NCBI GenBank assembly: GCA_045597145.1
Contig: JAZODU010000069.1
Location: 8,599 to 72,598 of the forward strand
DNA: 64,000 nucleotides
From: Eubacteriales bacterium
GTDB lineage: Bacteria > Bacillota > Clostridia > Oscillospirales > CAG-272
Direction of reading: 5' to 3'
Positions 36-50,176 of the stretch are shown piece after piece. The notes beneath the pieces were generated by a model. The model searched no databases. It had not been told where the DNA came from and was given only the letters and a program-made list of their open reading frames with translations. Positions within the stretch are counted from its first letter, which is position 1; every line of letters starts with the position of its first letter. Made by a program: the position numbers and the translations under genes.

Positions 36-698
36 ATGAGCAGAGACAGCATCATCGCGCGCGTGGAGGCTGAAAAGCTGATCGCGATCGTGCGCGGCAT
101 TAAAAAAGAGCATCTGATCGACATGGCAGAGGCGATGTATGCGGGCGGCGTGCGGCTTCTCGAGATCACCTACAGCGCAAACGGCGCGGTTTCCGACGAG
201 GAGACCGCCGACGGCATCCGTATGCTCAAATCGCATTTGGGCGACCGCATGGGCATCGGCGCGGGCACGGTGCTGACCGAGCGTCAGGTCGAATTGACGG
301 CGGCGGCAGGCGGCGAGTTCATCATCTCCCCCGACGCAAACCCCGACGTGATCCGCAAAACAGTGTCGCTTGGCTTGGTTTCCATTCCCGGCGCGCTGAC
401 CCCCACCGAAGCGCAAGCGGCGCATCGTGCGGGCGCGGATTTCGTCAAGCTCTTCCCCGTCATCTCGTTGGGCGTGCCTTACGTCAAGGCGATCCGCGCA
501 CCTCTCTCGCACATCAAGTTCCTCGCGGTCGGCGGTGTGGATGAGCATAACATGAAGGACTACCTTGCGGCAGGCGTTTGCGGCTTTGGCATCGGCTCGA
601 ACATCGTCAACAAGGCAATGATCGAATCGGGCGATTATGCGGGCGTCACGGCACTTACCAAGGCGTTCACAGACGCCCTTGGAAAGGAGTCGGCATGA
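36..698 (+). CDS. eda: KDPG/KDPGal aldolase (Eda/DgoA family)
   Basis: 220-aa ORF with a class-I aldolase pattern (LIAIVRG, LLEITY, GAGTVL, FVKLFP). Its stop overlaps the next start in ATGA at 695-698. Confidence 0.85.
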   Translation: MSRDSIIARVEAEKLIAIVRGIKKEHLIDMAEAMYAGGVRLLEITYSANGAVSDEETADGIRMLKSHLGDRMGIGAGTVLTERQVELTAAAGGEFIISPDANPDVIRKTVSLGLVSIPGALTPTEAQAAHRAGADFVKLFPVISLGVPYVKAIRAPLSHIKFLAVGGVDEHNMKDYLAAGVCGFGIGSNIVNKAMIESGDYAGVTALTKAFTDALGKESA

Positions 699-1636
699 CG
701 CGCTACATCACGCTTGACGGCGGCACGACCAACACGCGCCTCTCGCTGGTAGCCGACGGCGAGCTCCTGCAAACCGTCAAGATCCCTCTCGGGGCACGCT
801 CCTGCATCGACGATGCCCCCACGCTTCGCCGCGCCATCAAGGACGCGATTGATACGCTTTTATCCGCACACGCCCTGCAGGAGCGCGACATCGAGCGCAT
901 TTTGGCTTCGGGCATGATCACCTGCGAGTTCGGGCTTTGCCATCTGCCGCACGTCACTGCTCCTGCGGGTCTGCGAGCGCTGCACGAGAGCATGCACGAG
1001 GTGGTAATCTCCGATATTTCCGCGATCCCCTTCGTATTTATCCGCGGCGTGAAATCGGTGGGAGGCTCGCTTTGCGACACCGACATGATGCGAGGTGAGG
1101 AGGCGGAGCTGATGGGCTTGCCTCTCTACAGCGGAGAAAAAACGCTCTACGTCCTGCCGGGTTCGCACTCCAAGCTGATCGAGGTAGACGCCGACGGGCG
1201 CATTTCCCACTTTTCCACCATGCTCACGGGCGAGATGATCGCCGCGCTCTCGCAGAACACGATCCTGTGCGACGCGGTGGATCTTTCGATCCCCACCTAT
1301 GACGAGGCATATCTGCTTGAGGGCAGTCGCTACACGATGAACCGTGGGCTGAACGAGGCACTTTTCAAGGTGCGGATCCTCAAGAATCTGTTTGACACCA
1401 CCCCCGAAAAGGTCTACAGCTTCTTTCTCGGGGCGGTTCTCTGCACCGAGATCGAGCGCATCTGTGCGTCGGACGCGACGCGCGTGGTCATCGGCGGCAA
1501 ATCGCAGATCAAGCGCGCCACCGCCGCCCTGTTGCAGAGCTACAGCGATTCCAAGCAGATCGTCACGGTTTCCGACGCCGACGTGGACGCATCAAGCGCG
1601 CGCGGCGTGATCCGGGTGTATGAACTTGCGGTATAA
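695..1636 (+). CDS. dgoK: 2-dehydro-3-deoxygalactonokinase
   Basis: Start set at MTRYITLDGGTTNTRL (ATG 695, coupled to the eda stop). DgoK-like blocks are MRGEEAEL, LPGSHSK and TMLTGEM. The track start at 578 is an extension inside eda. Confidence 0.75.
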   Translation: MTRYITLDGGTTNTRLSLVADGELLQTVKIPLGARSCIDDAPTLRRAIKDAIDTLLSAHALQERDIERILASGMITCEFGLCHLPHVTAPAGLRALHESMHEVVISDISAIPFVFIRGVKSVGGSLCDTDMMRGEEAELMGLPLYSGEKTLYVLPGSHSKLIEVDADGRISHFSTMLTGEMIAALSQNTILCDAVDLSIPTYDEAYLLEGSRYTMNRGLNEALFKVRILKNLFDTTPEKVYSFFLGAVLCTEIERICASDATRVVIGGKSQIKRATAALLQSYSDSKQIVTVSDADVDASSARGVIRVYELAV

Positions 1637-1681
1637 AAAGATCCGAAAAAGGAGTGGTATTTGCCGCTCCTTTTTTGTTGC

Positions 1682-2161
1682 TTATTCGCTTTTCAGCTTT
1701 TGCTCCATGACGACCTTGAGGGGCATCATGCCGCATTTTTCATAGAATTTCATGGCTCCCGCATTCAGGCACCAGACGTTCAGCGTCACAGCGTCACAGC
1801 CGTTTTTTTGCGCCACGTCCAGTACGTAGCGGTAAAGACTTTGACCAATGTGCTGTCCGCGCAGGGATTCGTCCACGCACAGGTCGTCGATATACATCGT
1901 TTTGCGATCCATCAGCGCGATCTCGCCCTTGACCTCTTGGTACACGCAAAAGGCGTAGCCCATCACAAGGTCGGCGTCGTCCACCGCCACAAACACGGGC
2001 GTGCGCTCGTCGGCAAGGATCGCGCGCAGCTCCGCGTCGGTATACTTTTTGTTCCCCGTGCGAAAAATATCGGGTCTGCCTGTTGCGTGCACGAGATGCA
2101 CCTGATACAACAGATCATTTAGGCGCGGAATGTCCCGCTCCGTCGCTCTTCGAATGTTCAT
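1682..2161 (-). CDS. GNAT family N-acetyltransferase
   Basis: 159-aa ORF. The LRGQHIGQSLYRYV and NAGAMKFYEKCGM blocks are typical of the GNAT acetyl-CoA binding fold. Confidence 0.8.
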   Translation of the reverse strand: MNIRRATERDIPRLNDLLYQVHLVHATGRPDIFRTGNKKYTDAELRAILADERTPVFVAVDDADLVMGYAFCVYQEVKGEIALMDRKTMYIDDLCVDESLRGQHIGQSLYRYVLDVAQKNGCDAVTLNVWCLNAGAMKFYEKCGMMPLKVVMEQKLKSE

Positions 2162-2193
2162 AGTCCTTTCCTTTCTGCTTTATGGCCGGCTGA

Positions 2194-2487
2194 TCACCCA
2201 TGGCGCGGGGCCGTGCCGTTTATCACGTCGTTTTCGTCAAACACGGTCAAAAGGATCTCCTTCGCGCCCGTTCGCTCGTGGTCGTAGATCAAGTAAATTT
2301 TATCCCCGAAAAAGTCGGCGTCGGAATAGGAAACGCTGTTGCGCGTATCCACACAGCACTTATGTGCCCATGTAGCACCGTCGTTGTCAGCGAGATACAC
2401 CGTCATGCTTTTCCGCGCCTTGGGTTCGTCGTTGTTAATGATACCACTCCCCGCCAATATAAGCCATAAACGTGTCGCGTGCTTCAA
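2194..2487 (-). pseudogene. C-terminal fragment of a BNR/sialidase-like glycoside hydrolase
   Basis: The 97-aa ORF (SMTVYLADNDGATW...IYLIYDHE...LLTVFDENDV) resembles only the last blade of sialidase-type propellers. A 25-codon ORF with an AAGGAGA RBS (ATG at 2512) lies upstream in another frame. Confidence 0.35.
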
Positions 2488-2535
2488 AGCCGCCGTTCGG
2501 TTTCAGTAGCATATCGGTTCTCCTTGTAAGTACAT

Positions 2536-3732
2536 TCAATCCCCGTACAAGCAACGGATCAGGCGAAATGCCTGCTCGGCGGTGTTTTTTAAGTTGCGAT
2601 AGGCGTTTTTTGCATCCATGGCATCCTCAAGCGTGCACACGGTGCGCAAAACCGGGAAAAAGGCATCGATGCCGTGCGCGTTGCAAGCCCCCGCGTCCTC
2701 GGCGACACAGCCTGCAAACGCGATCACGGGCTTGCCATAGTGCTTGGCAAGCGAGGCAACGCCGATAGGTGCTTTTCCCATGCAGGTCTGCCCGTCAAGG
2801 CGTCCCTCACCCGTTACCACGACGTCTGCGTCCTTGATAATCTCCTCAAGATGCGTGACGCGCATCACAAGAGAGATGCCCGACTCAAGACGCGCGTTCA
2901 GATAGGTCAGAAAGGCAAAGCCCATGCCGCCGGCCGCACCCGCGCCGGGGGATTCCGCGAACGCTCGCCCCGTGGTGTCCGCGCTGAGCTTGGCGTAACG
3001 ATCAAGACACGCGTCCATGTCCGCGATCATCTCGGGAGTGGCACCCTTTTGCGACCCGAACACCGCGCTGCAGCCGCGCTCACCGCATAAAGGATTGGTC
3101 ACGTCGCACGCGACGAAAAATTCACATTCCGCAAGGGCTTCAATCGCACCGCCGCAATCGATCTGCGAGAGGTGCGCAAGCCCGCGGGCACCATGCGGGA
3201 TCTCGTTTCCCGCGGCATCCCGAAAAGAAAATCCCAGTGCCTGCAGCATGCCGACGCCGCCGTCGTTGGTGGCACTGCCGCCAATACCGACGATGAACGT
3301 CCGACAGTTGTTTTTCTCTATGGCGTGCGCGATCAATTCGCCCACGCCATAGGTCGTGGTGACGCGCGGGTCGCGCCGTGCGGCAGGAATGAGCGTGATC
3401 CCTGCCGCCGCAGACATTTCAATAATCGCCGTGCGCGTATCGGGAAGCACGCCGTACACGGCTTCCACACGCTCCCCCAAGGGGCCCGACACCCACGCGC
3501 GGCAAAGCTGACCGCCCATAGCAGCTGCCAATGCCTCGACGGTACCCTCGCCGCCGTCTGCCAAGGGGCAGACGACCGTTTCTGCGTCGGGGACGGCTGC
3601 CCCGATCCCCTCGGCAACCGCGCGCCCCGCCTCCAAGGAGGACACGCTGCCCTTAAACGAATCTATCGCGATCGCTACCTTCATAGATTGTTCTTTTTTC
3701 TTCTCGAGCAAATCAAAAAATTCCACAAACAT
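2536..3732 (-). CDS. glxK: glycerate kinase
   Basis: Glycerate kinase family pattern throughout (MKVAIAIDSFKGS, GGSATNDGG, VVTGEGRLDGQT). Start set at ATG 3732, preceded by AAGGAGA. Alternative starts are 3684 (MKVAIAID) and 3765. Confidence 0.85.
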   Translation of the reverse strand: MFVEFFDLLEKKKEQSMKVAIAIDSFKGSVSSLEAGRAVAEGIGAAVPDAETVVCPLADGGEGTVEALAAAMGGQLCRAWVSGPLGERVEAVYGVLPDTRTAIIEMSAAAGITLIPAARRDPRVTTTYGVGELIAHAIEKNNCRTFIVGIGGSATNDGGVGMLQALGFSFRDAAGNEIPHGARGLAHLSQIDCGGAIEALAECEFFVACDVTNPLCGERGCSAVFGSQKGATPEMIADMDACLDRYAKLSADTTGRAFAESPGAGAAGGMGFAFLTYLNARLESGISLVMRVTHLEEIIKDADVVVTGEGRLDGQTCMGKAPIGVASLAKHYGKPVIAFAGCVAEDAGACNAHGIDAFFPVLRTVCTLEDAMDAKNAYRNLKNTAEQAFRLIRCLYGD

Positions 3733-3766: not shown

Positions 3767-3816
3767 ACTGCTGTAAAATGAAATTTTGAGTTTCGCTCAA
3801 AAGTAACATTTGTCCT
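3767..3816. repeat. island repeat unit, copy A
   Basis: ACTGCTGTAAAATGAAATTTTGAGTTTCGCTCAAAAGTAACATTTGTCCT, with internal hairpin TTTTGAG-TTTCG-CTCAAAA. Confidence 0.8.
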
Positions 3817-4166
3817 TAACTGTTCCCCTTTGCGGTGGTGATGGAGGCGATGAGTCTACGTCTGATCGAACCGCATTTGTTTCGCAAATCTTTATACGTG
3901 ACCTCGTCCATTTTCCCTTTTCTGAATATCAATTCGAGCCAATATTCCGTTTCAGAACACTCTTTCAAAGAGATTTCCAATTTATTTATAAAATCCGCTT
4001 TGCTTTGGGCGTATTTTGCTTCGTGAATGTTTGCTCCGATTGACGACGAGGAGCGAACAATCTGGTTGACATAAACCGAACAGCCCTTTATTTCATCACA
4101 AAGATCAGAAATTTGAATTGCAAATTCGATTGCATCTTCACGGAGTTGGTTCTCGTTATCGTTCAT
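3816..4166 (-). CDS. four-helix bundle protein (23S rRNA intervening-sequence protein family)
   Basis: 116 aa from MNDNENQL (ATG 4166, RBS AAAGGAG). Family pattern IVRSSSSIGANIHEAKYAQSKADFINKLEISLKECSETEYWLEL. The longer track ORF reaching 4418 is rejected. Confidence 0.75.
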   Translation of the reverse strand: MNDNENQLREDAIEFAIQISDLCDEIKGCSVYVNQIVRSSSSIGANIHEAKYAQSKADFINKLEISLKECSETEYWLELIFRKGKMDEVTYKDLRNKCGSIRRRLIASITTAKGNS

Positions 4167-4189
4167 TTGATAAAACTCCTTTCTTTTTG

Positions 4190-4415
4190 TCGATATGTTC
4201 GCCATTGGCGAACTCGATATATGGTCGCTTTGCGACCATTCGATATATTTCTCGCTTCGCTCGAAATTCGATATGTTGCCTGCGGCAACGAGGGTCGATT
4301 GCACCGCACTAAAGTAACGTCTCTCGCTTTGCCCACAGGGCAAAGCATATCGAGCGCGAAGTGTCATATCGAACGCAAATCGTATATCGAACGACGCGTC
4401 AGCGGCGCATATCGA
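4190..4415. repeat. dyad array of eight YATATCGAR motifs with interspersed short hairpins
   Basis: TCGATAT occurs at 4190, 4214, 4240 and 4268. ATATCGA occurs at 4347, 4366, 4384 and 4409. Hairpins lie at 4198-4212, 4222-4238, 4276-4288 and 4327-4345. Confidence 0.7.
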
Positions 4416-4433
4416 CATCGAATCCGCGGGTCA

Positions 4434-4932: not shown

Positions 4933-4962
4933 ATGAGCATAAAAAATGCAGGGGGAAATGTT

Positions 4963-6279
4963 ATGCCTTATGCAATAGATTTATTTTGCGGAGCGGGTGG
5001 ATGTTCCGAAGGATTAATCCAAGCAGGTTTTCACATATTATTCAGCTCCGATATAAGCGATATGGTGGAAAAAACCTATCGCCATAGACACGAACAACTC
5101 GGTCTCATTCAAGGAAAAAATACTTGGTTTCAACGTGAAGATATTCGCAATCTAAAAGGCAAAGATATAGAAAGATATATTTCGCAGTTGGAGATATTCC
5201 AAGGCGAACCGATTCCTGAAATTGATTTGTTGATCGGTGGTCCCAGTTGTCAGGGCTTTTCTCGTGCAGGCCGTCGGGATAAATCCGATCCACGAAATAT
5301 GCTTTTCGGGGAATATGTAAGAGTGGTGAGCGAAATAAAGCCCAAATACATTGTTCTTGAAAATGTCGAAGGATTCGTAGATATGCGATTTGTCGGGTAC
5401 AAAGGTATCACGGGAATCCAGTATCCCGATGGTAGTGTCACACCTAAAATTTTAAGAAGTGAATTAAGTGAAATTGGCTATGAAACACTTGAACCTAAAA
5501 TACTGAATGCTGCGGACTATGGTGTACCCCAAAGAAGAAATCGCGTCATTTTTATTGGCTTTAGAAAAGGATTGACACCGCCTAAATATCCAGAACCTAT
5601 TATTAATTCTGCCGATTATTTAACATTGACAGAAGCCATAGGTGATTTGATTGTCAGCGACGAAATACGAGCGAGAGTAAACAAGCAAGCCTCTCAGTAT
5701 CAACTTGATAGCCAAAGAGGTCGAACTCCGAGTGCTAACGGTATGCCTATAAAGTCAACTACTCCTAAAAATACAGAGTTATCCAAACAAACCCCTATCG
5801 TCATTGAAAGATTTTCTTTGTTTGAAGAGGGTGAAACAGGAACTATGTTGAAGCGAAGAATTTTGGAAAAAGGGATTGATTTAACAGGCAAAAATGCTTT
5901 AATCACACTCTGTGCTAAAAGTTTTGCGATGTCTAACGAAGCTGTTATTACGCTCTTCAGAGAGGCTCGTGCTACGATCACTCAAATAGAAGTTTTGCTC
6001 ACAAAAAAGAACATTCGCCAAAGATGGGCTTCAAATCAGCCTTCTGCAACGATAGTCACAATAGCCGACGATTATATCAGCCCGTGGGAAGATAGGACTT
6101 TCAGTGTGCGCGAAATGGCTCGTTGTCAATCTTTTGATGATTCGTTTGAATTTTTGGGAAAACGAACAACAGGCGGTTTGCAACGCCGAGTAGAAGTTCC
6201 GCAATACACTCAAGTTGGAAATGCGGTGCCACCGTTGCTTGCAAAAGCAGTTGCATTGGAAATTAAAAAAGTTTTATAA
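4963..6279 (+). CDS. DNA (cytosine-5)-methyltransferase (R-M module 1)
   Basis: Motif I DLFCGAGG. Motif IV GGPSCQGFS. Motif VI ENVEG. Motif VIII QRRNRVIFIG. Motif X TQVGNAVPPLLA. RBS GGGGGA lies before ATG 4963. Confidence 0.9.
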   Translation: MPYAIDLFCGAGGCSEGLIQAGFHILFSSDISDMVEKTYRHRHEQLGLIQGKNTWFQREDIRNLKGKDIERYISQLEIFQGEPIPEIDLLIGGPSCQGFSRAGRRDKSDPRNMLFGEYVRVVSEIKPKYIVLENVEGFVDMRFVGYKGITGIQYPDGSVTPKILRSELSEIGYETLEPKILNAADYGVPQRRNRVIFIGFRKGLTPPKYPEPIINSADYLTLTEAIGDLIVSDEIRARVNKQASQYQLDSQRGRTPSANGMPIKSTTPKNTELSKQTPIVIERFSLFEEGETGTMLKRRILEKGIDLTGKNALITLCAKSFAMSNEAVITLFREARATITQIEVLLTKKNIRQRWASNQPSATIVTIADDYISPWEDRTFSVREMARCQSFDDSFEFLGKRTTGGLQRRVEVPQYTQVGNAVPPLLAKAVALEIKKVL

Positions 6280-6313
6280 CTCTTGACGGGGTACTTATAT
6301 AGTACCCCTTTTT

Positions 6314-7522
6314 CTATGATTTCGTCAAGTCATATTCAATAGGAGTTCCTAAAAGCAACGGCAAATCTTGCGGTTTCATTTTAAAAAGCATACCGTGGTC
6401 TCGCCATTTACCTTCGGGGGTGTAGTGTGCAGCAATGTCGACTGTAATCTTATCCGTTTCCAACAGAGGTGCTATTAAAGAAGTGTTCGGATGTTTGGTG
6501 TGTAGTACTTTATCATATCGAAAATATTCAATGCTATTATGAATTTCCGAGACTGCTTTTACCCAAAATGTTTCGTGGTGTTTAACAAGCAAAGTTTGTG
6601 CAAGACCACTGATATACCAAGCGGAAACATACCGTCTTATTTCTTCTTGTTGATACATTATTTTTAGTTTGTCATCGTTCGCCGTAACCTCTAAAACAAG
6701 GTCATATGCGTTTATATGAGTCACCTTTAATGTATCGTATAACTGTAGTCGTGCGACCGTTGTTCCTTTTGGGATTTGTATTTTTCCGTATGCATCCACG
6801 ATTTGTCTATAGGTCATTCCATCATCGGGAACTTTGGTAAACAATGTAGACTTGGTTGAATGCCTAATTACACCGTCACGCGACAAGCGAGAGGTCTTTA
6901 ACTCTATGCCCTTGTAATCAGGCGTTTTTGCATTATTCCTTGAAATACCTAATGCGTGTTCAAGCGTATCTCCTACACCGGGATCTCCGCGAGTAATCGA
7001 AGGAATAAAACCGCGATTATGTATATTCTGTATCTTGTTGAGCAATTCGCGAGCAACCACATTGTCTTGATGGACCGACTCCAGTAGAATATCATATACG
7101 AATGCTTTTTTGAATAAAGATTCTACAATTTTGGCATCAGAAAGGTTTATTACATATATTTTTTTGTTGGCTATAATGAGTGCTAAAAGGTTACAAGGAG
7201 AACAATAGTGGGTAAGTTTACTAAACCAAATTCTCGGGTCGCCCTTTTTTGTTAAAGGACGATAAAGGGAGGCAACGGTTTCTTGTACTTTATCGGGATA
7301 TACAAAATAACTTTGAACTAAAGTCTTGGCGTTAGGACCTTGATTTTGTGCCTCGTAATCGTGTATATCTTTATTCTTTAAAAGTTCGCGCACAGGAGCT
7401 GTTGCATCCATTATAGATTTACCATAACCAGTAGGCGTAGGTACGAGAAAAGCAACTGAAACACCCGTATCTGCAAAAATGGGAAGGAATTGTTCTATAT
7501 CGGTATCGGACATTAGTAACAT
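6314..7522 (-). CDS. type II restriction endonuclease, MvaI/BcnI (MutH/Sau3AI-like) catalytic domain with a ~165-aa N-terminal extension
   Basis: GDPGVGDTLEHALGISRNNAKTPDYKGIELKT matches the (G)xGxxxExxLG...PDxxxIE-x-K core. The C-terminal VDIAAHY...WRDHGMLFKM resembles the MvaI VDIRIGAY...HDHGTAFRI block, as I recall it. The gene is convergent with the MTase. Confidence 0.65.
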   Translation of the reverse strand: MLLMSDTDIEQFLPIFADTGVSVAFLVPTPTGYGKSIMDATAPVRELLKNKDIHDYEAQNQGPNAKTLVQSYFVYPDKVQETVASLYRPLTKKGDPRIWFSKLTHYCSPCNLLALIIANKKIYVINLSDAKIVESLFKKAFVYDILLESVHQDNVVARELLNKIQNIHNRGFIPSITRGDPGVGDTLEHALGISRNNAKTPDYKGIELKTSRLSRDGVIRHSTKSTLFTKVPDDGMTYRQIVDAYGKIQIPKGTTVARLQLYDTLKVTHINAYDLVLEVTANDDKLKIMYQQEEIRRYVSAWYISGLAQTLLVKHHETFWVKAVSEIHNSIEYFRYDKVLHTKHPNTSLIAPLLETDKITVDIAAHYTPEGKWRDHGMLFKMKPQDLPLLLGTPIEYDLTKS

Positions 7523-7561
7523 AGTTTAAAACTCCTTTGTTTTTCTCGATATGTTACCCCT

Positions 7562-7640
7562 AACTGCTGCAAAATGTACTTTCGAGTTTCGCTCAAAAGC
7601 AACATTTTTCCCTAATTTTTAAGTGGTGCTTGTGAACATA
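7562..7640. repeat. island repeat unit, copy C (full)
   Basis: AACTGCTGCAAAATGTACTTTCGAGTTTCGCTCAAAAGCAACATTTTTCCCTAATTTTTAAGTGGTGCTTGTGAACATA. Confidence 0.8.
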
Positions 7641-7647
7641 TCAGAGA

Positions 7648-8916
7648 TTACATTCCGTTATAGTTCTCCCATCTCCACCGCAAGAACTCTTTATTTGTGA
7701 AATCGGGAATCACAATACGAGGAGGAATCAATGCACCGTAATCCATTCTCGCCCTCGAAGATAGTTCAACAATTCCTGTTTCTGAAATACGTAAATGTCC
7801 TGTGTCGAATAAAGTATGTATGTCGGTTCTCATTGCAAATCCGTTCGCAACAGTATCTTCACCATTATACTTGAAGGGTTTTATGTGTGCAGCTTCTAAA
7901 ACCTCGGGCATCGTAACATTTGTAATTACACAACGTTGACAAGCCTTAAGTACTTCTCTTCTAAAGTTTGCTTGATTCGGTCTTGCCGTTCTCATTGTTT
8001 GAACACGTTTTCTTTCAACTTCAGATGTAACTTCTGTTGCTCGAATTTGAGCTAACGCAGATATAAGCGATTCGTCTTTGGGCTTTTGAGCAATGATTGC
8101 AGAAATTTCATCTAGTATAACGGCACTAATAGCATATTTTTCAGCCATCCTTGTGTTGCCGCCTATAAGATTGATATATCCGTAATTTGAAAGGAACAAC
8201 AAGTATTCTCGTGCTATACGCATGTCATTGGCTTCGGGGCAACAATTGGGCCATCCAATTAGAGATATTTCACCTGCCCTATACCAAAGTATGAAATTAA
8301 CATAGTCTTCTATTTCCGCATGGCATCCCGACAATGGAATAATCACTTTTATCAGTTCTTCGGTGGTGATATAACCCTGCCCTAATTCTTGAAGCTTCAT
8401 TTGAATTTCAAGGATTAGCCTTAGCGGATATAAGACCAAATTGTGTTCAAGCCAACGAGCACATTCCTGCTGACTTTGAATTTGGGCGTTAGGCAATTTA
8501 AAGGTTTGAACTGTTATTGCTGCAAACTCGGTTTGCGAAATATCATGGTCGGCGATCCTTCTACCAAATTCGGTTAATTGGATTTGCCCCGAGCGTCCGC
8601 CCGGAGGAATTAATCCCAAGGCTCTCCAATATTGTCCTGAATTTCTAATTAAATTCCGTTCGCCGGCCCTTCTTTCTAAATCCACGCCGACGGAATCTTT
8701 TATGTCATTAGATAAATCTATCAGTTCTTTTGCAAATTCATCTGAACTGTATTTCACGCCCAAAGGCTCTAACTTTCGCATTCTGAACAAAACGCCAAGC
8801 AATACAACGGGGTCATTCAATCCCTCTGTACATTGTAGGCATGCCCATTTCCATTTAAATTCGGGAAAGGGCTTTACTGGTACATAATTTTTAGGTAACA
8901 TATTATTTTTCCTCAA
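7648..8916 (-). CDS. HNH nuclease, putative restriction endonuclease of R-M module 2
   Basis: C-terminal HNH block: FRREVLKACQRCVITNV...LEAAHIKPF...NGFAMRTDIHTLFDTGHL. It is the last gene of the C-M-M-R operon and overlaps the MTase stop by 14 nt. I cannot assign the N-terminal ~300 aa. Confidence 0.7.
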   Translation of the reverse strand: MRKNNMLPKNYVPVKPFPEFKWKWACLQCTEGLNDPVVLLGVLFRMRKLEPLGVKYSSDEFAKELIDLSNDIKDSVGVDLERRAGERNLIRNSGQYWRALGLIPPGGRSGQIQLTEFGRRIADHDISQTEFAAITVQTFKLPNAQIQSQQECARWLEHNLVLYPLRLILEIQMKLQELGQGYITTEELIKVIIPLSGCHAEIEDYVNFILWYRAGEISLIGWPNCCPEANDMRIAREYLLFLSNYGYINLIGGNTRMAEKYAISAVILDEISAIIAQKPKDESLISALAQIRATEVTSEVERKRVQTMRTARPNQANFRREVLKACQRCVITNVTMPEVLEAAHIKPFKYNGEDTVANGFAMRTDIHTLFDTGHLRISETGIVELSSRARMDYGALIPPRIVIPDFTNKEFLRWRWENYNGM

Positions 8917-9829
8917 AATCGTTAAACATACGAGCTACAGCGTATCCCAATAGCGGGGGAACAGCATTACCAATTTGTCTATATACGGACGAACGATTGC
9001 CCGTAAACTCAAATCGCAAAGGAAAACTTTGCACTGTAGCAAGCTCCCTACAAGACATTCTTCGTGCTGCGTTGGGATGCGGCAAAATAACAACTCCACC
9101 TTTGCTGTCTCCTCTTGCAGTAACAGTAGGTGCGGGTTTTTCAGGATCAAGTGGACGGTGACCCAAATAACCGTTAAACTCTAATTTGTATTTTGAATAC
9201 TCATGATTCGGTAAATCGTTAGGCTGGTCGGGGTCAGGAATATTGGACAATGCCGATAAAACGCTTACCCACTTTGGTAAACCGTTACTACCGTTTTTGT
9301 CGTGTGTAGGCGACGGAAATACATATTCAAAATCCAAATCCGAACGAACACCCACAATAATCACTCTCTGTCGAGTCTGCGGAACCCCAAAATCAGCGGC
9401 GTTTAACACTTTCGCACAGACGTTATAGCCCAAATCGCGAAAATCAGAGAGAATCATCTCAAACACTTTTCCGCCTAACAAATTCGTTAATCCCTTGACA
9501 TTTTCAGCCAAGAAAAATTTTGGCTTTTTAGCATCAATGACACGAATCAGCTGTTTATACAATGCGTTTCTTGTGTCGTCCGCATGACGTTTGGTGTTTG
9601 CAACCGAAAAACCCTGACAAGGAAATCCCCCAATTACAATATCACAATTCGGAATATCTGCCTCATTGATTTTAGATATATCTTCGCAAACAATATGGTC
9701 TCCAATATTCTTTCTATATGTGTTTACCGCATCTTCGTATAAATCATTTGCCCAAATTATAGTGTGACCGGCCATTATAAAACCCAAGTCTAGACCGCCA
9801 GCACCGCTAAACAAAGATACTGCTTTCAT
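8903..9829 (-). CDS. DNA (cytosine-5)-methyltransferase (module 2, second copy)
   Basis: Motifs SLFSGAGGLDLG, GGFPCQGFS, ENVKG, QTRQRVIIVG, RRMSCRELATVQSFP and YRQIGNAVPP. Confidence 0.9.
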   Translation of the reverse strand: MKAVSLFSGAGGLDLGFIMAGHTIIWANDLYEDAVNTYRKNIGDHIVCEDISKINEADIPNCDIVIGGFPCQGFSVANTKRHADDTRNALYKQLIRVIDAKKPKFFLAENVKGLTNLLGGKVFEMILSDFRDLGYNVCAKVLNAADFGVPQTRQRVIIVGVRSDLDFEYVFPSPTHDKNGSNGLPKWVSVLSALSNIPDPDQPNDLPNHEYSKYKLEFNGYLGHRPLDPEKPAPTVTARGDSKGGVVILPHPNAARRMSCRELATVQSFPLRFEFTGNRSSVYRQIGNAVPPLLGYAVARMFNDFEEK

Positions 9830-10761
9830 CTGATTACTTCCTTTTCCAATCTTATCAATTCTTCACCTAGTAATTTTGCAAATTTGACGGGAACAGCATT
9901 GCCAATTTGCCTATAACAAGCCCCCATCGCTCCAACAAATTCAAAATTTTCCGGAAAGGTTTGAACGCTCGCACTTTCTCGAATTGTTAATCTGCGTGTT
10001 CCATTATAATGTGGTATAGCACAAACTCCGCCTTTCCCATTTCCCCGCGCCAAAATAGTAGGTGATGGCTTGTCAGGCTCTGTCTGTCTATGTCCCGTGA
10101 AATTGCGATACTCAACTTTGTAAGAAGAACAAATATGATTCAATACAGTATGCGTGCTTGCAGGGTCAGGAAAATGATCGATAGCTTCTTTTATCGAAAC
10201 CCATGCAAGAGGACTTCCACTTTTTGAGTGAGTAGGTGTGGGGAAACGAAACAACAATTCTTTCCCTATGTCTGTTCTTTGTCCGATGATAATAACTCTC
10301 TGTCTTGTTTGAGGCACACCATAATCTGCCATATTAACTAAAGTTACAGATGTGATATACCCCGCTTGTTCGAAATCATTGATGATTTGTCGAATTGCCG
10401 TCCCATTACCCAAGCTCAAAATCCCTTTTACATTCTCTGCAATGAAAAACTTAGGTTGCTTAATAAGTATTGTGTTGTAAAAAAATTTATATAGTTGATT
10501 TCTGTCATCGTCAACAGTTCTAAGAAGATTAGCCTGTGAGAATCCCTGACAAGGAAATCCACCAACTACTACATCGGCATCGGGAAGCGTATGAATATCA
10601 ATGTTTTTTATGTCATCACACACTATGTGTTCACCAATATTTTTTTTGTATGTTGCTACGGCATCTTTATCAAAGTCATTAGCCCAAATTACACTATTTC
10701 CTGCTTGAATCAACCCTAAATCCAAACCACCCGCACCACTAAATAAAGATATTATCTTCAT
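9826..10761 (-). CDS. DNA (cytosine-5)-methyltransferase (module 2, first copy)
   Basis: Motifs SLFSGAGGLDLG, GGFPCQGFS, ENVKG, QTRQRVIIIG, RRLTIRESASVQTFP and YRQIGNAVPV. It has a 4-nt overlap with both neighbours. Confidence 0.9.
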   Translation of the reverse strand: MKIISLFSGAGGLDLGLIQAGNSVIWANDFDKDAVATYKKNIGEHIVCDDIKNIDIHTLPDADVVVGGFPCQGFSQANLLRTVDDDRNQLYKFFYNTILIKQPKFFIAENVKGILSLGNGTAIRQIINDFEQAGYITSVTLVNMADYGVPQTRQRVIIIGQRTDIGKELLFRFPTPTHSKSGSPLAWVSIKEAIDHFPDPASTHTVLNHICSSYKVEYRNFTGHRQTEPDKPSPTILARGNGKGGVCAIPHYNGTRRLTIRESASVQTFPENFEFVGAMGACYRQIGNAVPVKFAKLLGEELIRLEKEVIR

Positions 10762-43769: not shown

Positions 43770-43846
43770 CGGGGTGTGGCACAGCTTGGTAGTGCGCTTG
43801 GTTCGGGACCAAGAGGTCGCAAGTTCGAATCTTGTCACTCCGACCA
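43770..43846 (+). tRNA. tRNA-Pro (anticodon CGG)
   Basis: Cloverleaf read by hand. Acceptor CGGGGTG/CACTCCG. Anticodon arm CTTGG-TTCGGGA-CCAAG. T arm GCAAG-TTCGAAT-CTTGT. CCA is encoded. Confidence 0.9.
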
Positions 43847-46726: not shown

Positions 46727-47395
46727 CTATTGAAGTGCTTGAATCGCCGCACGGATCTGCGCGATCGAATAGCCGTATCGCGCAAGAGACGCCGTCATAC
46801 GGCGCAGCTCATCGCGGTCGCTTGGAACAGCTCCGTACTTTTTGCGGATCAGCGTGACGCAATTTTCTTCAAAATCAATTTGCACCAAAAGCTCCGGAAG
46901 CTCCGAAAGGGACTCCGCCGCAAAGCCACGGTTCCAAAGGTGCGCGCTGATGCGCTTCGCGCCCCAGAGCTTGCGCACGCATTTTTCCACCTCGCGCCGC
47001 ACGTCGCTCTCCTCGTCGATCAGCCCCGACGCCTCAAGCCGCTTGGCGGCGGCAAGAGACACCTCGCGGGAATACCCGCGCTGCATCAGCTTGCGCGTCA
47101 GAAGCCCCACCGAATTGGCACCGTAGGACAGCAGATTCTCGCCGCTTCGCAGTGCCTGGCAAAGCTGTGACGCCTCCTCCAGCTGCTCGTAATCCTCCTC
47201 CGAAATGATCCCCTTTTGAGGCTTCAATTCGCAATATTGCTCCATGGTAAGCGGCAGGCTTTTCTGCTCCCGATGTTCCCCATTATCAAGAAGCACCTGC
47301 ACCAACACCTCGGCACCGTCATGTTGTGCGCGCAAAGCGCGCACGGTGATCGTCGGCGGAAGTGCCGCCGTGGGCAGATTCTGATTATTCGTCAT
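46727..47395 (-). CDS. recX: recombination regulator RecX
   Basis: RecX repeat pattern ([26 protein letters not shown]; [10 protein letters not shown]). The start overlaps the recA stop by 11 nt. Confidence 0.8.
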
Positions 47396-48503
47396 CCTCG
47401 CCGCCATCCGACAGACGCAGATCGAAATCGTCCTCGTCGTCCATCTCAAATTCCTGATCCATATTCACACGTGCTTCCTCGCTCAACGCGCGAACCTTTT
47501 CCTCGACCTCTGCCATCATATCGGGGTTGCCCTCCAGCAGCTTGCGCACGTTTTCCTTACCCTGACCGATGCGCTCGCCGTTATAAGAGAACCAAGAGCC
47601 GCTTTTTTTGATCACGTCAAACATGATCGCAAAATCCAGCACCTCGCCCGAACGCGAAATGCCCGAGCCGTAGAGAATATCGAACTCCGCAACGCGGAAA
47701 GGGGGGGCTACCTTGTTCTTGACGATCTTGCACTTGACGTGGTTGCCGTATACGTCGTTGCCGTCCTTGAGCTGCTCGGTCTTACGGATATCAATACGAA
47801 CCGACGCAAAGAACTTGAGCGCGCGGCCGCCGGTCGTGGTTTCGGGGTTTCCGTAGATCACACCGACCTTCTCTCGAATCTGGTTGATGAAGATGACCAC
47901 GCAGTTGCTCTTGGAGATGACACCCGAGAGCTTACGCATTGCCTGCGACATCATTCTCGCCTGCACACCGACCATAGACTGCCCCATGTCGCCCTCCAGC
48001 TCCTGACGCGGAACAAGTGCCGCTACGGAGTCGATAACGATCGCATCTACCGCGCCCGAGCGCGCCAGTGCCTCGCAGATCTCCAGTGCGTCGTCACCGC
48101 TGTCGGGCTGAGAAACCAGCAGCTCGTTGATATTGACCCCCAACGCCTTTGCATAGCCGGGATCCAGCGCGTGCTCGGCATCGATGAACGCCGCCGTGCC
48201 GCCGATCTTCTGCACCTCGGAAAGAATATGAAGCGCAACGGTGGTCTTACCCGAGGACTCGGGACCAAAGATCTCGACGATACGTCCGCGCGGAACGCCG
48301 CCGATACCGAGCGCCAGGTCAAGCGAGAGCGAGCCCGTGTGGATCGCCTGCACCTCCATTTTCGTGTTTTCTCCCAAGCGCATGATCGAGCCTGCGCCGA
48401 AATCGCGCTCGATCTTGGACAGTGCGGTTTTCAGCGCCAGCTTTTTCCCCTCGGCGTCGAGATTCTGCGGAACGGCAGCCTTTGTCTTTTTAGCAGTAGC
48501 CAT
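47385..48503 (-). CDS. recA: recombinase RecA
   Basis: Start at MATAKKTK. Blocks [22 protein letters not shown], Walker [10 protein letters not shown] and FINQIREK. Confidence 0.95.
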
Positions 48504-48561
48504 AATCAAAAAATCCTCTCCCGCGGTGCTTTTTGCGCCGCGATTCCTCTTTTGGTAGTTC

Positions 48562-48841
48562 GTACCCATCAAGGACTCGAACCTATAAGGTTTTGGAAGG
48601 CAAACGCTTGTATAAACTGCGTCAAAAAGTCTCGCAATATCTTATATTGCTTCGCCTTTTTTCTTGTTTCTCCGAACCGTTTGTTCTCCCAAAACTGCAT
48701 CGCACCCTACGGCGATGCAATTTTTGATGGATTGCGGCGGAGCGAACCGCAGGAAAGTGCGGATTTTTCAAGGTGAGCTACGGCGCAAGACGCGGAAATT
48801 GCACGCCGTAGGACTTATAGGTTCGAGTCTTTGATGGGTAC
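48562..48841 (-). repeat. 280-bp element bounded by 28-nt inverted repeats, inside the recA 5' leader
   Basis: The reverse complement of 48562-48589 matches 48814-48841 at 27/28 nt. The interior holds at least four hairpins. It lies between the predicted recA promoter and the RBS. Confidence 0.7.
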
Positions 48842-48845
48842 CCCT

Positions 48846-48874
48846 ATTATACCGCACTTTCCCGCCTTTGTCAA
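48846..48874 (-). promoter_or_regulatory. sigma-A-type promoter, predicted recA promoter
   Basis: Minus strand reads TTGACA, 17-nt spacer, TATAAT. There is no ORF between it and recA. Confidence 0.65.
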
Positions 48875-48960
48875 GTACTTTTTGAAATATATTTTTCCGT
48901 TTTTGGGATTTTATTTTTAATTCCGCCTATTTTGGACAAAAAATCAGCCTTCCAAATTCC

Positions 48961-48992
48961 AAAAAAGGACACCGCGCAAAATTTGCGCGGTG
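48961..48992 (-). terminator. intrinsic terminator of the EIIC-like gene
   Basis: CACCGCGC...GCGCGGTG hairpin, followed on the minus strand by TCCTTTTTT. Confidence 0.7.
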
Positions 48993-49015
48993 CCGCTTTT
49001 CGTTGATATTGGATA

Positions 49016-50176
49016 TTACTCGGGAAGCGTCATGTCGCCGGGCTTGATCCACTTGATCTTATAGAACAGCTCGCTGAACAGGAGCGAGAGGATCGCGGGC
49101 AGAACGATGCAAACGAGCAGGAGCCCCACCCACATCATCGCGGGAGAATCGGTCGTGCCGATCATACTGTCGATCACGCCGATAGGGCCCACCAGACCGC
49201 AGGTACCCATGCCAGCCGCAACGCCGCTGCACTGAAGCTTGAACACCATGGTGGAAATGGGCCCCGTGATCGCCGCTGCCAACGTGGGTGCGATCCAGAT
49301 ACGGGGGTTCTTGCAAATGTTGCCCATTTGGAGCATGGACGTGCCAAGTCCCTGCGACACGACACCGCCCCAGCCGTTTTCCTTGAAGCTTGCAACGGCA
49401 AAGCCGACCATTTGCGCACAGCAGCCTGCAACCGCCGCGCCACCTGCCAGGAGGAAGCCCTCCGCAGTTCCGTCAGCCAATGCGACCATGTATGCCGACT
49501 CGGAGAAGATCATCGCGCAGATCGCGGCACTGGAGATCGGCAGCGTCAGGATCACACCAACGACCACGGACACGACAATGCCCATCAGAAGGGGCTGGAG
49601 CGTGGTGGCTGTGGAGATAAACACGCCGAGATAATACATCAGGTAAGAAACGATGGGACAGAGCAGCCAGCAAGCCGCAAAGCCCGCGACGATCGTAACG
49701 ATCGGGGTGACGAGAATGTCGACCTTGGTCTTTTTGGACACGAGCATACCGATCTCCGCCGCCACGATCACGGCAAAGAATGCACCCGCAGGTCCTGCGC
49801 TGTAGAACACGCCCTCGGGAGCGATCGCGGGGATCAGTGCCCATGCCTTGATCACACCGTCACTGATGATCGCGCCGATGCCGTTGCCCATGGCCCCCAC
49901 AGCGGCGCAGGAGAAAATGACCAGCGGGTCAGCCCCCAGCTTGAGTGCGATCGCAACGCCGATAGCCATACCTGTAGCACCCTTGGCGTATCCGGCAATG
50001 GTGTTGCAGATCACCGCAAAGGTGCTCGGTGCCTCCGCACCGATGATTCTGTCAAAAACGTCGCCAATCGTTCCAAAGATCGTACCAATCAGGAGAGAGG
50101 CAAACAGTCCGAGTGCCATCGCGCCCATCGCATCGATGAAATAGCGCTTGGCATACTTTTTTAAGGTTTCCATCAT
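49016..50176 (-). CDS. polytopic membrane protein, PTS EIIC-like (EIIC_2 type)
   Basis: 386 aa from MMETLKKYAKRYFIDAMGAMALGLF. GGAGG RBS. The family call is from memory of the N-terminal pattern only. Confidence 0.5.
   Translation of the reverse strand: MMETLKKYAKRYFIDAMGAMALGLFASLLIGTIFGTIGDVFDRIIGAEAPSTFAVICNTIAGYAKGATGMAIGVAIALKLGADPLVIFSCAAVGAMGNGIGAIISDGVIKAWALIPAIAPEGVFYSAGPAGAFFAVIVAAEIGMLVSKKTKVDILVTPIVTIVAGFAACWLLCPIVSYLMYYLGVFISTATTLQPLLMGIVVSVVVGVILTLPISSAAICAMIFSESAYMVALADGTAEGFLLAGGAAVAGCCAQMVGFAVASFKENGWGGVVSQGLGTSMLQMGNICKNPRIWIAPTLAAAITGPISTMVFKLQCSGVAAGMGTCGLVGPIGVIDSMIGTTDSPAMMWVGLLLVCIVLPAILSLLFSELFYKIKWIKPGDMTLPE

Follow-up and report, generated by a model that had tools for sequence, protein, structure and literature searches.

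A lineage-specific 280-nt insertion, probably a small MITE-like mobile element, at the recA transcription start of a Clostridia metagenome-assembled genome

We analyzed a 64-kb stretch of DNA (64,000 nt, hereafter the window) from a metagenome-assembled genome (MAG) of the Clostridia. In this window, recA lies on the minus strand (47385 to 48503) as an intact gene of 372 aa, counted from the conserved ATG at 48503, and is followed by recX. Read in the recA sense, the locus consists of a PTS EIIC gene, a terminator, an A/T-rich spacer, a promoter, the four nucleotides AGGG, an inverted repeat arm, an interior segment, a second arm, the leader, and recA. The PTS EIIC gene, the upstream neighbor of recA, ends at 49016, with the terminator at 48994-48968. 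The promoter is TTGACA-17-TATAAT on the minus strand (48846 to 48874), which matches the consensus at 12 of 12 positions and is located outside the inverted repeats. A previous reading of this DNA from its letters alone (the sequence-only reading) had named it, read 48874->48846, as the only good promoter of recA, and our consensus scan agreed, since it found no other strong promoter-like site within 48300-49200. The native 3' part of the recA leader (48504 to 48561, minus strand) comprises CGAACTACCAAAAG, a GC-rich hairpin at 48522-48543, and the ribosome binding site (RBS) GGGAGAGG at 48515-48522. The hairpin just before the RBS had also been pointed out before, and it is indeed present, with a C-A mismatch on the RNA strand.

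Between the promoter and this part of the leader lies an element of 280 nt (48562 to 48841, including a GTAC at both termini), which is non-coding and has a GC content of 47.5%. It starts 4 nt past the -10 box and stops 58 nt short of the recA ATG. Its promoter-proximal terminal inverted repeat (48814 to 48841) reads GTACCCATCAAAGACTCGAACCTATAAG in the recA sense, and its promoter-distal terminal inverted repeat (48562 to 48589) reads CTTATAGGTTCGAGTCCTTGATGGGTAC and carries an 18-nt tRNA-like core and an ATG at 48569 in frame with recA. The arms are 28 nt each, are complementary at 27 of 28 positions (96%), and enclose 224 nt. This is the inverted repeat that had been described from the sequence, and two arm matches were found in 0 of 100 shuffles of the window. 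At a tolerance of up to 3 mismatches, the window contains no arm-like site beyond these two arms. Within the element itself, the consensus scan found no outward promoter.

We compared the locus with recA loci from two sources. A protein search gave the closest RecA sequences, namely the window's own protein (P0001), two proteins at 97% identity (P0002 and P0003), and many at 84-89%, and their contigs were compared. In addition, we examined 80 recA loci of GTDB species representatives; the window's species is not included in this set, and its best RecA is 75% identical. The matches among these representatives come from uncultured rumen and cecum Clostridia. In the relatives with 97% RecA identity (L081-L084 and L085; 88-90% DNA identity), the blastn homology breaks at 48842 and restarts at 48561, or at 48563 in L085, and only about 5 nt separate the two break points. 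The indel boundaries coincide exactly with the arms. In the relatives with approximately 87% RecA identity (L086/L088, L090, and L091), the conserved CCAAAAACGGAAAAATATATT box and TTGACA-17-TATAAT precede a short leader (61-70 nt), which has a hairpin and an RBS, and the element is missing. Leaders of 34 nt at 75% RecA identity (L001) and of 64 nt at 70% (L002) were likewise found without it. The TTGACA-17-TATAAT promoter is kept in L081, L085, L086, L090, L091, L001, and L002. In every examined relative with the same promoter and leader, at 97%, about 87%, 75%, and 70% RecA identity, exactly 280 nt (48562-48841) are missing. None of the 80 representative loci showed similarity to the element, and the nearest of them have no comparable inverted repeat 5' of recA.

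The window segment 48504-48561 is homologous to the entire short leader of the relatives. A hairpin before the RBS is kept there with differing sequences, such as CGCGGTGC/TGCCGCG, CGCGGCA/TGCCGCG, and CGCGGG/CCCGCG, and further RBS-proximal hairpins were TCGCG/CGCGA, GACGC/GCGTC, and CCGGCG/CGCCGG. Because the relatives keep a hairpin at this position, it is, as judged from these alignments, a conserved feature of the recA leaders of the clade and not part of the insertion. By the same comparison, three parts are native, namely the promoter, the conserved box upstream of it, and the final 58 nt of the leader. Considering that the relatives all have no element, one insertion is more parsimonious than several precise deletions, and on this comparative evidence the 280 nt are a single lineage-specific insertion at the transcription start of recA, which occurred after the split from the genomes with 88-90% DNA identity. 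Of the two explanations proposed in the sequence-only reading, the relatives with the same promoter and 3' leader and without the 280 nt support the first, a miniature inverted-repeat element that landed in the recA leader. The alignment of upstream regions, which had been suggested as a check, showed on the other hand that the element is absent from the relatives and is not a conserved leader.

The junctions in the window read GTATAATAGGG-GTAC-CCATC...GATGG-GTAC-GAACTACCAAAAGAGGAATCGCGG, and the corresponding site in L085 reads GTATAATAAGG-GCAA-CGAATTACCAAAACAGGAATCGCGG. Both ends of the element carry GTAC, or TA, which is palindromic and can also be counted into the repeat. Taking GTAC or TA as target duplication reduces the element to 272-276 nt. 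When one GTAC is kept, the reconstructed empty site is within 1 nt of the length found in the relatives, so a target duplication of 2-4 bp (TA or GTAC) would fit the restored leader length. The assignment is ambiguous, and the duplication is not provable, because GTAC is palindromic and the relatives read CAAC at the insertion site, versus GTAC in the window. A TA target is known for Correia and RUP elements, and the possible TA here matches it. An excised or polymorphic empty site would show the junction ...TATAATAGGGGTA joined directly to CGAACTACC.

We also considered whether the insertion could be an assembly artefact of the MAG. P0001 was found on a single MAG contig of 74.7 kb, and there is no independent assembly of the species. 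However, a unique 224-nt interior between near-perfect inverted repeats of 28 nt, placed in mid-contig, is not what assemblers normally generate, and the junctions coincide exactly with the repeat ends, as in a real insertion. We consider an artefact very improbable.

The element has no credible coding capacity. Six-frame translation of it gave no homologue at E <= 10 among 5.8 billion proteins. The claim that no ORF lies before the recA ATG holds in the sense that there is no credible one, whereas mechanical ORFs of 43-64 aa do exist in the region, all without homologues. The arm nevertheless has a consequence for annotation. The public RecA annotation P0001 (394 aa) starts at the in-frame ATG 48569 inside the 3' arm, whereas the conserved start gives 372 aa, and the 22 residues at the start of P0001 are spurious.

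The arms resemble part of a tRNA gene. The string GGTTCGAGTC, earlier described as tRNA T-loop-like, was found in both arms, and an 18-nt stretch of the arm, GGTTCGAGTCCTTGATGG, occurs unchanged in many tRNA genes, where it makes up the T-arm and the first four acceptor bases. The length of the arm is also like that of the 3' part of a tRNA (stem 5 + loop 7 + stem 5 + acceptor 7 + 1). A search of IMG/VR with the 18-nt core gave 26 matches, and 9 of the 11 loci that were run through ARAGORN have a tRNA gene at the match (Lys-CTT, Gln-CTG, Met, Arg-TCT, Tyr, and Trp), while ARAGORN found no tRNA there in the other two (L107 and L109). None of the loci checked was like the element outside the 18-mer. 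In the element, ARAGORN found neither a tRNA nor a tmRNA, and its only find in the window was the tRNA-Pro at 43770. In the predicted fold, the T-arm-like string is buried in the 28-bp terminal duplex and forms no T-arm. Since the chance of an 18-nt identity to a tRNA is on the order of 1% by a rough estimate, the sequence makes it plausible that the arms came from a tRNA or that they mimic a recombination target of the tRNA type. We consider it probable that they originated from, or imitate, the T-arm/acceptor portion of such a gene.

The predicted fold of the element is a Y-shaped three-way structure, in which two hairpin domains, each of approximately 105 nt, extend from the 28-bp terminal duplex. 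The first domain (48705 to 48813, minus strand) is closed by an 18-bp helix, UCCUACGGCGUGCAAUUU / AAAUUGCAUCGCCGUAGGG, and includes CCGCA-CUUUCC-UGCGG. The second domain (48590 to 48695, minus strand) is closed by GUUUUGGGAG.../...CCUUCCAAAAC and has the tip GCAAUAU-AAG-AUAUUGC (repeats I2 and I23). All four internal hairpins listed in the sequence-only reading are present, and the minimum-energy fold includes the CCGCA/TGCGG and GCAATAT/ATATTGC hairpins among them. For CTACGGCG, two partners are available, CGCCGTAG close by and a second copy at a distal position, and the minimum-energy fold takes the distal copy; the pairing TGCATCGC/GCGATGCA competes with the long helix formed by CTACGGCG and this distal copy. 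Alternative local pairings in the first domain are CUACGGCG/CGCCGUAG, and GCAUCGC/GCGAUGC followed by UUUU (repeats D12, I10, and I24). The recA-sense strand folds at -120.7 kcal/mol (z = -10.4 versus shuffles) and the antisense strand at -135.2 kcal/mol (z = -12.3). Folded as DNA, the element has z = -11.5, and the interior alone has z = -3.7.

These structures bear on the second explanation that had been proposed, in which the 280 nt would be a dedicated structured leader RNA that regulates recA in cis, riboswitch or attenuator-like. The transcript would begin at the base of a very stable predicted structure, and the mutually exclusive pairings (CUACGGCG with either CGCCGUAG copy, and GCAUCGC/GCGAUGC plus UUUU versus the 18-bp helix) resemble terminator/antiterminator logic. 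However, the element is absent from every related recA locus examined, including those at 97% RecA identity. The whole window gave only the tRNA-Pro at 43770 against Rfam 15 at gathering score, and a permissive scan of 48350-49100 at E <= 10 gave only sub-threshold noise. Furthermore, the antisense strand folds slightly better than the sense strand (z -12.3 versus -10.4), which is not what is expected of an RNA selected on the recA strand; in these models, the equal or better antisense folding would fit a symmetry at the DNA level. With the element missing from relatives and no Rfam family matching it, the proposal of a dedicated cis-regulatory RNA was not supported, and we regard it as highly unlikely.

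Folding of the full 5' untranslated region (5' UTR) predicted that the element forms a separate domain, and that the native hairpin and the RBS are the same with the element, with the element flipped, and without it. The probability that the RBS is unpaired was 0.74 in all three cases. Within the element, the recA-sense strand has no terminator by a consensus scan. A looser scan of this strand gave one hairpin (-13.6 kcal/mol) followed by UUUU, and this hairpin competes with the 18-bp helix of the first domain. On the antisense strand, the interior has two terminator-like hairpins followed by TTTTT, at 48696-48719 and 48747-48762.

Such an arrangement raises the possibility of an invertible switch of the cwpV/flgB type, in which a site-specific recombinase encoded in trans would flip the 224-bp segment between the 28-bp repeats, and the flipped hairpins and U-runs would terminate the recA transcript, resulting in phase variation. 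The inverted repeats flank a segment within the range of 150-400 bp between promoter and start codon, as in invertons, and the order of parts (promoter, 28-bp inverted repeat, 224 bp, inverted repeat, 58 nt to the ATG) is nearly that of cwpV. Inversion would put the antisense hairpins with TTTTT (48696-48719 and 48747-48762) in the sense orientation. The arm core is also of the tRNA T-arm-like type, and such strings are a frequent type of target for tyrosine recombinases. On the other hand, all examined relatives lack the two repeats and the interior together, as a single block with exact boundaries, so the inverted-repeat structure arrived by insertion and was not formed in place. The larger ORFs of the window have no recombinase domain, although such enzymes can act in trans. 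The asymmetry between orientations is modest, with two hairpins plus UUUUU in the flipped form against one hairpin of -13.6 kcal/mol plus UUUU in the present form, and it would be explained equally well if selection had acted on how a tolerated insertion was oriented. Accordingly, we consider a switch of this type improbable. The related idea that the cassette is a working inverton that arrived as a mobile unit, with its tRNA-T-arm-like repeats, and makes the capacity for recombination and SOS response phase-variable in a gut or rumen lineage of the Clostridia, seems to us hardly probable. If the element does invert, recA would be phase-variable, and we know of no report of a phase-variable recA. 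The flipped orientation of the interior would read the arm and then GTTTTGGAAGGCAAACG....

Considering these results together, we propose that the insertion at 48562-48841 is a small, non-autonomous MITE-like mobile element, with 28-bp terminal inverted repeats, a self-pairing non-coding interior of approximately 224 bp, and no transposase of its own, and we give this reading a probability of roughly three in four. MITEs are known to have terminal inverted repeats, a target duplication, no transposase, and long RNA stem-loops, and to affect mRNA stability when co-transcribed (PMC3184786, PMC11602168). By the features used to recognize them, the element has terminal inverted repeats longer than 10-15 bp, a size within approximately 50-800 bp, no credible coding capacity, and an empty site in relatives. 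A parent IS or transposase with matching ends was not found within the 64-kb window, in which the larger ORFs have no Pfam transposase, integrase, invertase, or reverse-transcriptase domain.

Further copies of the element were searched for in several collections. Neither nhmmer nor blastn (word size 7) detected one in the 833 kb of related loci. In the JGI metagenome contigs, the outermost 22 nt of the arm, including the GTAC that is possibly target-derived, gave 0 matches, and the arm pattern without GTAC gave four contigs, all with one unrelated coding locus that has only the 22-mer in common. Two interior 22-mers gave 0 matches in IMG/VR, and blastn against PLSDB plasmids and GenBank phages found no match to the element. 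The six-frame translation also served to pick up other copies through spurious ORF calls in the protein collection, and it revealed none. The check for other arm copies, which the sequence-only reading had proposed as a test for a MITE, was made on the window, the related loci, metagenomes, viruses, plasmids, and phages, and returned no further copy. The absence of further copies is a weak negative, since the species is represented by one MAG contig. As the element is a singleton across all collections searched, its status as a multi-copy MITE is unproven. CCATCAARGACTCGAACCTATAAG is a string by which further copies would be identified. Among other candidates, a retron ncRNA was rejected as the larger ORFs of the window have no reverse transcriptase, Xer/dif-like 28-bp sites were rejected as there is neither a dyad nor a dif-like core, and an integron attC was rejected as there is no GTT / R-box.

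The singleton status would also suit a one-off remnant that was never a multi-copy family, in which an IS or other element at recA +1 later lost its interior in place, or illegitimate recombination brought in a fragment of foreign or tRNA origin. The tRNA-like arms and the unclear target duplication agree with such an origin. However, until the deletion, an IS of 1-2 kb separating recA from its promoter would probably have been highly detrimental. Moreover, the persisting identity of the arms at 27 of 28 positions and the strong self-complementarity of the interior are in keeping with a compact element, and singleton status counts for little when the species is hardly sampled by the searchable collections. 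We therefore consider a remnant unlikely.

With a MITE-like element as the preferred reading, the consequences for recA can be outlined. The empty sites of the relatives show that the element entered a few bases downstream of the -10 box, at the start of transcription. Since the last base of the -10 box is 48846 and the first base of the arm is 48841, with AGGG as the 4 nt between them, transcripts are predicted to begin in the first bases of the element; the start about 7 nt after the -10 box would be the first bases of the arm, in line with the earlier placement of the start in the right arm. The recA gene would still be transcribed from its own promoter, so that the recA mRNA would have the whole element at its 5' end. 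The RNA of the element may then fold on itself into the Y-shaped domain closed by the 28-bp duplex and leave the native hairpin and RBS undisturbed. As the present orientation has no strong terminator, the insertion is probably tolerated. Correia elements are processed by RNase III. The 28-bp duplex could stabilize the 5' end or serve as an RNase III site, in a manner comparable to co-transcribed bacterial MITEs (PMC3184786). Any operator that overlapped the original +1 region (+1 to +20, conserved CAACGAAC...) would now be approximately 280 nt from the promoter. A disruption of an SOS box by the insertion is speculative, because no canonical LexA (Cheo) box was seen by eye in the recA promoter of the clade. 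On the modelled structures, the element is most simply read as a passenger that is tolerated and extends the 5' UTR from approximately 65 to approximately 340 nt.

The locus can be regarded as a natural experiment, in which the mRNA of a central DNA-repair gene has received a very stable 280-nt RNA domain at its 5' end, and the recA promoter is separated from whatever operator or leader signals lie past +1. Its main practical value lies in annotation, since the ATG of the element misled the public RecA start, and the apparent long, structured leader of recA represents an insertion rather than a class of regulatory RNA.

Among known systems, the layout is like that of cwpV and flgB of Clostridioides difficile, with a promoter, an inverted repeat, approximately 200 bp, an inverted repeat, and approximately 57 nt to the start codon. 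In the cwpV switch, the promoter lies outside a segment of 195 bp between 21-bp inverted repeats, with 57 bp to the ATG, and the OFF orientation leads to a terminator (PMC2784873). The shared logic could be orientation-dependent termination. Unlike these switches, however, the recA unit is a recent insertion absent from relatives, its terminator asymmetry is weak, and it is known from one assembled orientation. The element is also like the 288-bp integron mobilization unit (IMU) and the Tn3-derived TIMEs, which have a size of approximately 250-300 bp, terminal inverted repeats, and stable predicted RNA or DNA folds. Their terminal repeats are copied from a parent transposon, and they are mobilized in trans (PMC3184786). 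IMU and TIMEs differ from the recA element in having identifiable parents and 5-bp target duplications, and the ends of the recA element do not begin with the GGGG typical of Tn3. Tn3-type ends were accordingly rejected, as GGGG is not common to both ends of the element.

The other close comparison is with Correia of Neisseria, ERIC/IRU of enterobacteria, and RUP and BOX of Streptococcus pneumoniae. Like the recA element, these are small, non-coding, bounded by terminal inverted repeats, and located in intergenic regions near promoters or in 5'/3' UTRs. They form long RNA stem-loops and can change mRNA stability or processing (PMC3184786). They differ in that they occur in tens to hundreds of copies per genome with a defined consensus, whereas the recA element is a singleton in the data searched, and it has no sequence in common with them (no Rfam, plasmid, or phage match). 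With its 280 bp and two domains of approximately 105 nt, it is larger and more branched than most Correia, ERIC, RUP, and BOX elements, and the core of its arms is tRNA T-arm-like. If the element is mobile, the poorly sampled rumen/gut Clostridia would have a new family of small transposons, defined by these tRNA-like ends.

When the recA loci of relatives with 97% RecA identity were compared with the window, three of them (L081, L082 and L084) showed about 2.7 kb of extra sequence (positions 70-3000) separating the PTS EIIC gene from the recA promoter, with an HTH_26 gene and two further genes of 109 aa and 596 aa. Because this segment is present in these three loci and absent from both the window, where 48842-49016 was compared, and the outgroup L090, we consider that the region upstream of recA, judged from sequence comparison, is a site of repeated insertion in this clade. 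On the 3' side of recA-recX, the relatives with about 87% RecA identity (L086-L090) carry a phage-like block with a P22-type portal, a large terminase and a capsid, whereas in the window recX is followed by an EamA transporter and further chromosomal genes. The window also contains a dense restriction-modification cluster (4933-10761) with three C-5 cytosine methyltransferase ORFs, an MvaI/BcnI-family endonuclease and an HNH_2 protein, adjoined by a 23S rRNA-intervening-sequence protein gene (3816-4418).

In terms of annotation, the public entry for the RecA of the window (P0001, 394 aa) starts at the ATG at 48569, within the 3' arm of the 280-nt element inserted in the recA leader, and is otherwise 100% identical to the RecA of the window. 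The RecA of relatives begins with MATAKK, preceded by GGAGAGG. The 22-residue N-terminal extension of P0001 is probably an annotation artefact due to the insertion of the element. A 22-nt string of the arm, TATAGGTTCGAGTCTTTGATGG, was also found within an apparent coding region in four JGI metagenome contigs of one organism (L123-L126; Ga0308169_10009035 and others). These contigs showed neither a second arm nor interior similarity to the element, and we judged the shared string to be a chance match.

Just upstream of the recA -35, a box, (T)CCAAAAACGGAAAAATATATTTCAAAAAG (48879-48908, minus strand), is near-invariant across the whole clade, even where RecA identity falls to 70%, with the versions TTCCGAAAATGGAAAAATATTTTGAAAAA in L001 and TTCCGAAAATGGAATAAAATATTTCAAAA in L002. 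A TTCC-N6-GGAA dyad lies within this box. A canonical Cheo/LexA box (GAAC-N4-GTTC) was not visible in the recA promoters of this clade, whereas one is present at other Firmicutes loci examined, such as L021 (GGAACGATTGTTCT) and L043 (AGAACAAGTGTTTG). The conserved box may serve as an UP element, as the recA operator of the clade, or as both.

A GC-rich hairpin (48522-48543) lies 0-3 nt 5' of the recA RBS, with equivalents in L081, L085, L086, L090, L091 and, farther upstream, L002. Its position is kept but its sequence differs among these lineages, and the base changes appear compensatory among the few sequences compared, of which L091 aligned poorly.

The element interior (48705-48812, minus strand) contains two copies of CGCCGUAG (48785-48778 and 48714-48707) and a single copy of its complement CUACGGCG (48811-48804), so that two mutually exclusive helices are possible. 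Formation of the distal helix competes with that of a GCAUCGC/GCGAUGC hairpin, which is followed by UUUU. These pairings resemble terminator/antiterminator logic, although in a singleton sequence they may be due to chance.
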